Positions 10,468 to 51,808 of a DNA stretch of 64,000 nucleotides are shown one piece after another. The stretch is from Candidatus Bathyarchaeota archaeon. Its GTDB lineage: Archaea > Thermoproteota > Bathyarchaeia > Bathyarchaeales > Bathycorpusculaceae. A program made the translations under genes and the position numbers. The stretch spans positions 1,888,001 through 1,952,000 of the forward strand of contig OY970280.1 in NCBI GenBank assembly GCA_963715865.1, read 5' to 3'. The first letter of the stretch is position 1. Every line of letters starts with the position of its first letter. Below the pieces are notes generated by a model that ran no database searches, was not told the DNA's origin, and was given only the letters and a program-made list of their open reading frames with translations.

Positions 10468-10540
10468 ATTTTCACCATCGATTGGTTTTTTGTTGTTTCG
10501 ACAAGTATAAACATAACAAGATAATAAAGACAGTGAAAGG

Positions 10541-11078
10541 GTGAAAGCTTACTTGAGATGCGAAGTCTGCGGACACAAAATTCACACTGAACCAATAACG
10601 GCAGTAATTGAAGGAGCTAAACTAACGGTTTGCGTTGAATGCTCAAAACATGGCAAAATAATCCATGAAGAAGCAGCCCTTCCCCAACAAGCCCTCAAAA
10701 AACCGCAGGCGCCAATTACACTGGTTCAGAAAAAACCAATAGTGGCTAAAGTAGAAATTACTCAAGAGATCACAGAAGATTATGCAAATAAGATAAAGCT
10801 GGCACGGGAAAAACTAGCGCTTACACATGAGGAACTCGGCAAAAAAATAAATGAGAAAGCCTCGGTTTTAAGAAACCTTGAAGGTGGGAAAATGGCGCCA
10901 AATAACCAGCTTAGCCTCAAAGCTTGAGCACATGTTAAAAATCAAGTTGCTTGTTCCAATCTCTGAAGAAAAAATCACTCAAATTCCTCAGTCCGCCAGC
11001 CGAGAATTGACGTTGGGCGACCTCATGGAATTGAACAAGAAAGGCGGGGAGGAGCCTACAGAACGAAAGCCATCATAG
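10541..11078 (+). CDS. mbf1: Archaeal multiprotein bridging factor 1 (Zn ribbon + HTH), interrupted by a +1 frameshift near 10913
   Basis: CEVCG/CVECS ribbon, IKLAREKLALTHEELGKKINEKAS HTH; C-terminal ASKLEHMLKIKLL...LTLGD lies in the next frame (ORF 10878..11078). Confidence 0.9.
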
Positions 11079-12334
11079 CGCAACGCAGGCTGAACCGTGA
11101 AAACTCAAGTTTAGATGAACTTAAAAGTTTAGCAGAATCCGCCGGATACACAGTTGTCGCCACATTAGAGCAAACTAGACCGCCTGATGCTCGCTACCAA
11201 ATAGGCGCTGGAAAAGTAGAAGAACTCGCCGAACTAGTCAAGGAAACCGGCGCAGAAAAAGTAATTTTTGACAACCAACTAAAAACACGCCAAACCTACA
11301 ATCTGGCAAAAGCAACACGAGTCGAAGTCATCGACAGGTTTCAGCTTATTCTTGAAATTTTCACTAAAAGAGCCACAACAACCGAAGCCCAAATGCAAAT
11401 CCAACTGGCCACACTGCAAAATGAGCTTAAGCATGCGAAAGAAAAAGTAAGATTAGCCAAAATGAGAGAGCAGCCTGGCTTTATGGGACTTGGATCTTAC
11501 GAAGCAGACGTTTACAAAGAAGCCATAAAACTACAAGTTCAAACAATCCTTAAAAAACTGAAAAAAATCCGCGAAAAAAGAATCCTGCACCGAGAAAGAA
11601 GAACGGAACTGGGTTTCCTTGCTATTTCACTTGCTGGATACACGAATGCTGGAAAAAGCTCCCTGTTTAACGCTTTAACCGAAGAAACCGTGCGAGTGGA
11701 TAAGTCATTATTTACTACTCTTTCAACGACCACGCGGATGGTGGAGTTTTCAAACCGCAAGTTTCTTTTAACAGACACCGTCGGCTTCATTGACCGATTG
11801 CCTTTATCGCTGATTGAAGCATTTCATTCAACCTTGGAAGAAACCATTTATTCAGACCTGATAATACTTGTTTTAGATTTAAGCGAGCCCATAGAAACAA
11901 TCGAGAAGAAAAACAACATCTGTCTGGAGACAATTGACCGCCTTGGAGCAGCAGGCATACCAACCATAACCGCACTAAACAAAATTGACTTAATCAGCGA
12001 AGCTGAAACTAAGCAGAAACTGAAAGCTCTAGAAGAGAAAACGCAAAATCCAATTCTCCTATCAGCAAAGTGCCAAACAAACCTCGACTTACTAAGACAG
12101 GAAATACTCAAAATTCTTGAAAATTACGTGCAAGCCCAGTTCTCTGTTCCGTTAACTAATAAGGCAATGCCATTTATCTCGTGGGTTCACGAAAAAACAG
12201 ACATCAGAAAAGAAAATTTCACCAACGATTCGGTTCAAGTAGTCTTTGAAGCTACCCCAGAATTAGCTGAGCAAGTGAGAAGAAAAGTGGAAGAATTAAA
12301 TGGCAAATTTGAAACCAACTCAAAAACAAAATGA
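11063..12334 (+). CDS. hflX: GTPase HflX; no ATG/GTG/TTG before 11393, putative ACG start at 11063
   Basis: In-frame upstream sequence KAIIAQRRLNRENSSLDELKSLAESAGY...YQIGAGK...VIDRFQLILEIF is the HflX N-domain; GYTNAGKS, LFTTL, DTVGF, NKID G-motifs. Confidence 0.93.
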   Translation, partial: TKAIIAQRRLNRENSSLDELKSLAESAGYTVVATLEQTRPPDARYQIGAGKVEELAELVKETGAEKVIFDNQLKTRQTYNLAKATRVEVIDRFQLILEIFTKRATTTEAQMQIQLATLQNELKHAKEKVRLAKMREQPGFMGLGSYEADVYKEAIKLQVQTILKKLKKIREKRILHRERRTELGFLAISLAGYTNAGKSSLFNALTEETVRVDKSLFTTLSTTTRMVEFSNRKFLLTDTVGFIDRLPLSLIEAFHSTLEETIYSDLIILVLDLSEPIETIEKKNNICLETIDRLGAAGIPTITALNKIDLISEAETKQKLKALEEKTQNPILLSAKCQTNLDLLRQEILKILENYVQAQFSVPLTNKAMPFISWVHEKTDIRKENFTNDSVQVVFEATPELAEQVRRKVEELNGKFETNSKTK

Positions 12335-12335
12335 C

Positions 12336-12890
12336 ACGCCTCAAATTGTTGTCTTAAGATGGGGGCATAGACCACAGCGGGACGTGCGATTAACTACCCA
12401 TGTCGCTTTAACTGCAAGGGCACTATGCGCTTCAGGCTTCATACTTTCAGACGTAGAAGACCCCAAAATAGAAGAAACCATAATGAAAGTCACCAAGAAT
12501 TGGGGTGGAACATTCTCTTTTGAAATGGGAACCTCATGGAAAAAGGCTGTTCGTGACTGGAAGGCTAAAGACGGCATTGTCACCCATTTAACGGCTTATG
12601 GAGAGAACATTCAAACAAGCGACGTTCTAAGCAGAATTAAAAAGCTGAATAAAGACGTTTTAGTTATTGTTGGAAGCCAGAAGGTTCCAGGCGAATTTTA
12701 TTCAAGCAATGTATCGGATTTTAACGTGTCTATTGGGAATCAACCCCATTCAGAATGTGCTGCGCTTGCAATATTTTTAGACAGATTTTTTGAAGGCAAA
12801 GAGTTAGCTAAAGGATTCGAAAAGGCGAAAATAGAGATTGTTCCCAGAGAAAGGGGAAAAGAAATCAAAAGTGATGTTGAATTTCCTTAA
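12336..12890 (+). CDS. trm56: tRNA (cytidine(56)-2'-O)-methyltransferase; start uncertain (ACG 12336 or ATG 12300)
   Basis: VVLRWGHRPQRDVRLTTHVALTARA, HLTAYG, VGSQKVP, NQPHSECAALAIFLDR SPOUT motifs. Confidence 0.93.
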   Translation, partial: TPQIVVLRWGHRPQRDVRLTTHVALTARALCASGFILSDVEDPKIEETIMKVTKNWGGTFSFEMGTSWKKAVRDWKAKDGIVTHLTAYGENIQTSDVLSRIKKLNKDVLVIVGSQKVPGEFYSSNVSDFNVSIGNQPHSECAALAIFLDRFFEGKELAKGFEKAKIEIVPRERGKEIKSDVEFP

Positions 12891-51250: not shown

Positions 51251-51808
51251 ACGGAAAATGAACGGCAATGCGTTATACCGCTTCACAAACCAAGTCTCAA
51301 AGAATTGATCTTCTTTTTCGCTTCAGGAGTCCTCGTAAGCATCCCTTTTACTTTGTTTTTTTCGCAGTTTTACTTTTTGTTCCCGTCAGCTTTGGCAGTA
51401 ATTGTTTTAGCGCCCTTCATAGAGGAGTTAGCTAAAGTTTTCCCTCTATTCTATAGGCATGGTGAAACAGAAAGGTCCCTTGTTACATTAGGTATTTTGA
51501 TTGGGTTAGGTTTCGGCATTTCTGAACTGGTATTGTATGTTGCCTTTTTGGGTGCGCCTTTGATTGATAGAATTCCAGGCGTCATTTTTCATGCTTCAAG
51601 CGCAGCCATAACTGCTTACGGTATAGCTAAGAAAAATCCTCTTCCTTACTACTTGTTGTCTGTGGTGCTTCACGCAACAAATAACTTCATTGCTTACGAA
51701 CCTCAGGTGACTTTTGGTTTGTTCGTTGAATTGATAGTTTTAATCGCGGTTTATCTTCTTGCTTGGCGCTTTTACCATAAGGCTTCAAAAGAAAAAATAG
51801 TCGTATAA
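51251..51808 (+). CDS. PrsW-family intramembrane metalloprotease; start uncertain (ACG 51251 or TTG 51305)
   Basis: APFIEELAK, GLGFGISE, FHAS, LHATNN motifs; frame open from 51224. Confidence 0.8.
   Translation, partial: TENERQCVIPLHKPSLKELIFFFASGVLVSIPFTLFFSQFYFLFPSALAVIVLAPFIEELAKVFPLFYRHGETERSLVTLGILIGLGFGISELVLYVAFLGAPLIDRIPGVIFHASSAAITAYGIAKKNPLPYYLLSVVLHATNNFIAYEPQVTFGLFVELIVLIAVYLLAWRFYHKASKEKIVV

Follow-up and report, generated by a model that had tools for sequence, protein, structure and literature searches.

The hflX gene of a peat-soil Bathyarchaeia archaeon is probably translated from an ACG codon, which would be read as a near-cognate start by the normal initiator tRNA; we assign this reading a probability of about 0.8. 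Initiation at ACG is supported by the conservation of the codon, by a fixed spacing to the Shine-Dalgarno (SD) sequence, by in-frame stops directly upstream in several genomes and by a genome-wide excess of ACG in comparable positions. The gene is located in a window of 64,000 nucleotides, which corresponds to positions 1888001–1952000 of a closed 2.35-Mb genome. Coordinates given below refer to this window unless a genome position is indicated.

The hflX frame is open from position 10967 onwards, and its earliest ATG, GTG or TTG is the ATG at 11393–11395 (+). Counted from the putative initiation codon ACG at 11063–11065 (+), inspection of the open reading frame gives 110 codons without a canonical start. 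Read from this ACG, the coding sequence (11063–12334, +; 423 codons plus stop) scores 295.7 bits with TIGR03156, compared to a cut-off of 216.75, and the Pfam domains PF13167 (GTP-bdg_N), PF16360 (GTP-bdg_M) and PF01926 (MMR_HSR1) are all present. PF13167 covers residues 15–100 as numbered from the ACG. A start at 11393, 110 codons inside the protein, is implausible because the whole HflX N-domain would be lost. The frame is intact and conserved in comparison to relatives. The ACG is preceded by the SD sequence GGAGG (11048–11052, +) with a 10-nt spacer, in accordance with 16S pairing and with the spacing found order-wide. The open frame, the encoded N-domain and the strong SD had been named in the original prediction, and the open reading frame and Pfam analyses agree with it.

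The mbf1 and hflX genes are co-directional, and the upstream stop lies within a few nucleotides of the downstream start. In the window, the mbf1 frame reads CGA at 11064–11066 and ends with TAG at 11076–11078, the junction sequence being ACGA and not the 4-nt ATGA overlap. It had been pointed out that a T at 11064 would create ATG for hflX and TGA for mbf1 at once, and this frame arithmetic is correct.

The mbf1 gene itself is split by a 1-nt insertion in this assembly. Its 5′ part (10541–10927, +), comprising the zinc ribbon and the beginning of the HTH, ends at a premature TGA, and the 3′ part (10914–11078, +) continues in a shifted frame and overlaps the hflX start by 16 nt; neither piece matches Pfam. 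The intact aMBF1 orthologue of the relative L002 reaches 142.4 bits with TIGR00270 (cut-off 110), and mbf1 is a single continuous open reading frame in 28 of 30 relatives. The frameshift is caused by one extra T at 10911–10912 (+), where the window has CAGCTTAGCC and the near-identical MAG palsa_986 (98 % identity) has CAGCTAGCC, i.e. CTT-A in comparison to CTA. The comparison leaves two origins for the extra base, a mutation of the strain or an error in the assembly of this closed genome, which was probably built from long reads. A genuine frameshift would abolish the coupling of hflX to the translation of mbf1. A programmed +1 frameshift at CTT-AGC-C, as in Ty1, was rejected, the extra base being private to this assembly. 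A compensating pair of 1-nt indels in comparison to the same MAG was also observed near the mbf1 start, at 10539 and 10552, by which 13 nt are shifted locally. The adjacency of mbf1 and hflX is known from Crenarchaeota (PMC3062615). There, too, the same gene pair is adjacent and both proteins are linked to the ribosome, but the earlier work concerns the neighborhood alone, whereas the overlap and the start codon are described here.

To follow the codon through the class, hflX was located in 40 relatives and in 200 genomes sampled from the class, with class-wide loci of 451 nt each, and the aligned start was read in 110 loci. Among 70 genomes of the same order, the position is occupied by ACG in 59, by ATG and by ACA in three each, and by ATT, ATA, ACC, ACT and GAC in one each. 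The alignment of the junction proposed in the original prediction thus reveals that the relatives do not all have ATG. No canonical start is found between codons −8 and +3 in 55 of the 59 ACG genomes. An in-frame hflX stop is located one codon 5′ of the ACG in five genomes and two codons 5′ in three, and therefore no N-terminal extension is possible in those genomes. GGAGG at the exact 10-nt spacing occurs in 57 of the 70 genomes.

The codon is equally constant in other collections. The best 80 named Bathyarchaeia records, which stem from many projects (Stordalen Mire, SPRUCE, Microflora Danica, deep subsurface, groundwater and the termite-gut Candidatus Bathycorpusculum), carry ACG without exception (80/80). 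The independent Illumina-based MAG palsa_986 also has ACG. When the same-order genomes and the best 80 named records are merged, ACG accounts for 125 and ATG for three of 136 distinct hflX starts, with the relatives representing non-independent samples. A metagenome scan with the pattern A[C/T]G returned 77 distinct matches, 75 of them hflX. All 75 read ACG and none ATG, a count that is silent on editing, as these contigs possibly include metatranscriptome assemblies; the lone ATG match was not hflX. In the aligned sequences the conservation of ACG is far beyond chance.

ATG is found in three genomes of the order, L037 (from the same genus) as well as L053 and L056 (both from family f7), in each case at exactly the position of the ACG. 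L037 and L053, which lack an earlier mbf1 stop, show the predicted ATGA overlap with its TGA as the mbf1 stop, and they are the only genomes with ATGA as stop/start overlap. In L056 mbf1 ends earlier, with a TAA 2 nt 5′ of the ATG. Outside the order, the aligned or a nearby codon is ATG, TTG or GTG in other orders of the class, and ACG recurs in the families f25 and f31.

The conservation concerns the codon and not merely the amino acid. Where the aligned position encodes Thr, ACG is used in 59 of 64 cases. In contrast, the Ala codon two positions after the start is distributed over GCA (26), GCC (22), GCG (12) and GCT (5), and all six synonyms are in use for Arg codons further into hflX. The codon is therefore constrained beyond the need for the amino acid; synonymous sites are saturated order-wide. 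In 15 same-order genomes mbf1 ends before the start codon, and ACG is the commonest codon there as well (8/15). Coding of mbf1 thus does not account for the ACG.

Family f6 and part of f7 have ACA, ACC or GAC in the aligned position, in most cases preceded directly by ATA or ATT. L028, L055, L058 and L064 (f6) as well as L030 (f7) have ACA, ACC or GAC with such a preceding codon, or an aligned ATA. L057 (also f7) offers only GTA-ACA at the hflX start, and the start codon is without explanation there. Overall, ATA, ATT or ATC at or adjoining the site was found in the sister lineages L019, L028, L030, L055, L058, L064, L080 and L084. These are likewise one-mismatch codons.

The analysis was extended to the whole genome, in which approximately 2,600 likely genes were called with a simple codon-usage model and the open region following the upstream stop was examined up to the first canonical start. 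Codons at least 10 codons before the first canonical start were counted, and GGAG or GAGG at start-like spacing was accepted as SD. In these start-less 5′ regions, 17 of 108 ACG codons (15.7 %) stand behind an SD, compared to 3.1 % for all codons pooled (p=3.5e-8); a genome-wide scan for ACG starts had been suggested in the original prediction. Among the non-canonical codons, strong enrichment behind an SD is seen for ACG alone in this genome, and the SD association of ATT, ATA and CTG is at or near background. With GGAGG as sole criterion five ACG cases are obtained, too few for significance, and the looser SD definition was used. TGT is the second most SD-associated codon (11/118, 9 %, p=0.001); this signal may originate from an ATG one base upstream in another frame, i.e. 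from mis-framed gene calls.

The 17 cases include hflX, rpoK, an NfnA/PyrK-like gene, argH, the gene of uS11, an Lrp-type regulator and a pilin-like gene. Apart from the SD, the sites have nothing in common upstream. About half of the candidates are located at most 40 nt from an upstream stop on the same strand, and several are without a close upstream gene. For rpoK (Rpo6/K; G000:C1:2094690 (+), L149), comparison within 30 family genomes gave ACG in 25 and ATG in two, three not being read from the alignment. The codons flanking this ACG vary, a stop precedes it by two codons, and the earliest canonical start is reached only 30 codons downstream, within the Rpb6 domain. In the gene of the NfnA/PyrK-like FAD/Fe-S subunit (G000:C1:1872997 (-), L119) the ACG is located 10 nt 3′ of GGAGG, and in 30 family genomes this single position behind GGAGG is occupied by ACG (9), ATG (18), GTG (2) or TTG (1).

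Open 5′ stretches of about 110–150 codons without a canonical start were also noticed at G000:C1:2124320 (-), 420285 (+) and 705776 (+), none of them with a clean SD-ACG arrangement. Of these three genes, one encodes a thymidylate kinase whose P-loop is not in frame, so that a frameshift is suspected. In a TrpE-like gene an ATG is present right at the beginning, but in a frame shifted by one. In the third gene, an archaeal dnaG, two ACG codons qualify as candidates, both of them preceded by weak purine-rich sites.

Two further genes of the window had been proposed to share the ACG pattern, and their recurrence had been taken to make three independent random errors unlikely. One of the two withstands comparison. 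The gene of a PrsW-family protease (51251–51808, +) has an ACG at 51251 that aligns with the ATG or GTG of the relatives examined; a T-to-C change confined to this genome has altered the start codon, which follows a weak AGGAAG site. The trm56 case fails, and the argument from three cases is weakened to the same extent. The gene of this tRNA Cm56 methyltransferase (12300–12890, +) starts with a conserved ATG at 12300, inside the 3′ end of hflX, and the ACG at 12336 encodes Thr in the usual way, without being conserved. Within the genus the codon aligned with 12336 is CTG, CCG, TTA, GCC, GAG or others, so that it was rejected as a start, and the ATG at 12300 is kept throughout the genus, followed by in-frame extensions of variable length. 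More distant families have their start, ATG or TTG, at the position of 12336, and for this reason the homology begins there. The trm56 of this genus has acquired about 12 additional N-terminal codons, variable in number, its ATG lying 35 nt inside hflX. For hflX itself, the dedicated control at the level of translation initiation or editing that had been proposed is an inference.

The initiation machinery of the genome is ordinary. The 3′ end of the 16S rRNA, GGATCACCTCCT, contains the anti-SD CCUCC, which pairs with GGAGG, and the 10-nt spacer of hflX is within the normal range of 6–11 nt observed for the ATG starts of this genome. There is one initiator-type tRNA, which is canonical (A1:U72, three G-C pairs from GGG/CCC in the anticodon stem, CAU). 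The sole tRNA(CGU) has G1:C72, is nearly identical to tRNA-Thr(UGU) and represents an ordinary elongator for Thr. Among the predicted tRNAs of the genome, none combines initiator features with the anticodon CGU, and reassignment of the start codon by a dedicated CGU initiator tRNA was rejected, as the only tRNA(CGU) is this elongator. The aIF1 gene has an ordinary ATG start. A search for an RNA hairpin or thermometer over SD and start revealed none, the fold being no better than that of shuffled sequences (z = +0.97). All three tRNA(CAU) genes carry introns, including the initiator (G000:C1:1878827-1878927 (-)); the very long 'introns' of 427–2043 nt that ARAGORN reports in some other tRNAs are probably false calls.

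How far the codon itself matters can be judged from the position of the mbf1 stop. Relative to the hflX start, this stop is found at +13 in 40 genomes, at +10 in 12, at −2 in 14 and at +1 in two. Tight translational coupling at gene overlaps has been demonstrated in Haloferax (Huber et al. 2019, PMC6728339), and ribosomes leaving mbf1 could simply restart at the nearest codon behind the SD, in which case ACG would be tolerated and not selected. The confinement of the stop to +13, +10 or −2 in nearly all genomes is in line with such termination-reinitiation, as is the proximity of about half of the ACG candidates to an upstream stop. The same applies to the variable start codon of the genomes with the stop at −2, which have ACG in seven, ACA in two and ACC, ATT, ATA, ATG and GAC in one each. 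However, codon identity is maintained in the 40 genomes with the stop at +13, which all have ACG. Several of the ACG candidates lack a close upstream gene, and ACN synonyms, which would be common if any codon sufficed, are rare. The difference between +13 and −2 might be a matter of phylogeny, or the codon might be less critical where reinitiation follows at once. Altogether, we consider reinitiation without selection for ACG a rather unlikely explanation. Still less can be said for a start at another place, be it the ATG at 11393, the ATC or ATA three to four codons downstream of the ACG, or a −1 shift leading to an aMBF1-HflX fusion. ATC and ATA are listed as alternative starts in table 11, the frames overlap, and slippage at A-AAG is possible in principle. 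On the other hand, 11393 would delete the entire N-domain, and codons +3 and +4 vary freely (Ile/Val/Leu) at 19–22 nt from the SD. A fusion is impossible in the 15 same-order genomes in which mbf1 stops before the ACG as well as in the five ACG genomes with an in-frame hflX stop one codon upstream, and the site is not an X-XXY-YYZ slippery sequence. These variants therefore appear very improbable.

The original prediction had left three options, namely ACG initiation, editing of the mRNA, and an error or mutation. Initiation at ACG is well supported by the data above. An error of sequencing or assembly, or a recent inactivating mutation in an hflX that is truly ATG-started or a pseudogene, might be suspected in a closed assembly with at least one private frameshift nearby, in mbf1, and with a private ACG in the PrsW-like gene. 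It is refuted by the occurrence of ACG in 125 of 136 distinct sequences, which come from numerous studies, by the uniform ACG of all 75 metagenome contigs, by an hflX frame that is intact and conserved, and by independent assemblies, about 90 % of the relatives keeping the C. Site-specific C-to-U editing would convert ACG to AUG and thereby create the hflX start and a UGA stop for mbf1 at once. The genomic ACG is located exactly where some relatives have ATG, a single edit would restore the classic ATGA overlap, and conservation of the ACG is what a fixed editing site would lead one to expect. Yet the ATA, ATT and ATC of the sister lineages are not repairable by C-to-U, and about 17 unrelated ACG sites share only the SD upstream. 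The suggested search for a cytidine deaminase, performed with PF00383, returned two CDA-fold proteins, both of the dCMP-deaminase type and, unlike CDAT8, without a THUMP domain; one of the two is fused to an AAA_18 kinase-like domain. We know of no mRNA editing in archaea. Editing is hence disfavored and has, in our estimate, little probability. If it did occur, it would be the first archaeal mRNA editing, and a regulated one, with one deamination switching on hflX and shortening aMBF1.

For initiation at the ACG, the following sequence of events can be envisaged. The GGAGG located 10 nt 5′ of the codon would pair with the CCUCC of the 16S rRNA and position the small ribosomal subunit. The ordinary initiator Met-tRNA (CAU) would then read ACG with one mismatch in the middle position, so that the first residue should be Met. 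In E. coli, GFP started from ACG carries an N-terminal Met (bioRxiv 10.1101/063800). Ribosomes that end mbf1, 13 nt 3′ or 2 nt 5′ of the ACG, would probably feed the hflX start by coupling, and the poor start would keep the output of HflX low relative to aMBF1. The persistence of ACG suggests that the weak start is a selected state, since ATG occurs in only 3 of 136 distinct starts although C-to-T is an easy change; the relatives behind this count are not independent. More tentatively, the ACG start might make HflX synthesis a read-out of start-codon stringency, i.e. of aIF1 activity or of free subunits. Such a sensor, which would correspond in archaea to the AUU loop of infC, is not very likely but is favored over editing by the present data.

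Near-cognate initiation is well known in eukaryotes, where ACG is read by the normal initiator Met-tRNA with low output, and the archaeal factors aIF1, aIF1A and aIF2 are homologues of eukaryotic initiation factors. Viral examples of ACG starts cited in PMC9845219 are AAV VP2 and Sendai virus C′. These eukaryotic and viral cases share with hflX the ACG at the start and, presumably, its reading by the normal initiator Met-tRNA with one mismatch and the low output. They differ in that scanning and Kozak context are used instead of SD pairing and gene overlap, and in that ACG produces alternative isoforms, whereas here it would be the sole start of a housekeeping gene. The bacterial infC gene, encoding IF3, has a conserved weak AUU start against which IF3 discriminates in an autoregulatory loop. 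Similar to the ACG of hflX, it is a one-mismatch start conserved over long evolutionary distances in a translation-related gene. The AUU of infC serves, however, as a sensor for autoregulation, and both codon and domain of life differ.

Plant organelles offer a parallel for the editing hypothesis, in that C-to-U editing of ACG to an AUG start is mentioned for ndhD and psbL in PMC9845219. As for hflX, a genomic ACG at the initiator position is conserved between species. In contrast, organelle editing needs PPR-type recognition together with a deaminase, and no such system was found here, the deaminase search being based on PF00383; moreover, the sister lineages have AUA or AUU. A possible ACG start was also described for the tape-measure gene of the mycobacteriophage Corndog, with bypassing left open by the authors (PMC4351075). 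There as well ACG stands where related phages have ATG, and no canonical start exists upstream of the detected peptides. Corndog represents a single phage gene in a bacterial host, whereas the present case is order-wide in archaea and comprises about 17 genes of one genome. With the ATGA-type termination-reinitiation coupling of Haloferax (PMC6728339) the junction shares the co-directional overlap and the SD inside the upstream gene, and relatives with ATG and an open mbf1 frame show exactly ATGA. It differs by a mostly 16-nt overlap (stop at +13) with ACG, the canonical 4-nt signal being absent. Near-cognate codons made up about 30 % of the putative alternative initiation sites in Haloferax and were set aside in that study (PMC7261190). 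Our literature search found no description of conserved ACG starts in archaea. What is new here is the conservation of the ACG of hflX order-wide and beyond; ACG and ATG were moreover counted without bias, the excess of ACG was quantified for the genome as a whole, and a dedicated tRNA was excluded.

To our knowledge, ACG is listed as a start codon in no prokaryotic genetic-code table, and therefore gene finders shorten hflX by 110 codons. Truncation also affects rpoK, the NfnA-like gene and a dozen further genes, and this concerns hundreds of Bathyarchaeia genomes. An order-wide ACG in a ribosome-rescue gene that overlaps the gene of a ribosome-associated factor is a tangible example on which near-cognate initiation in archaea can be tested. 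Archaea initiate translation with an ancestor-like relative of the eukaryotic machinery, in which ACG and CUG starts are regulatory. The mbf1-hflX junction thus offers a natural system for asking whether weak starts set dosage in archaeal operons.
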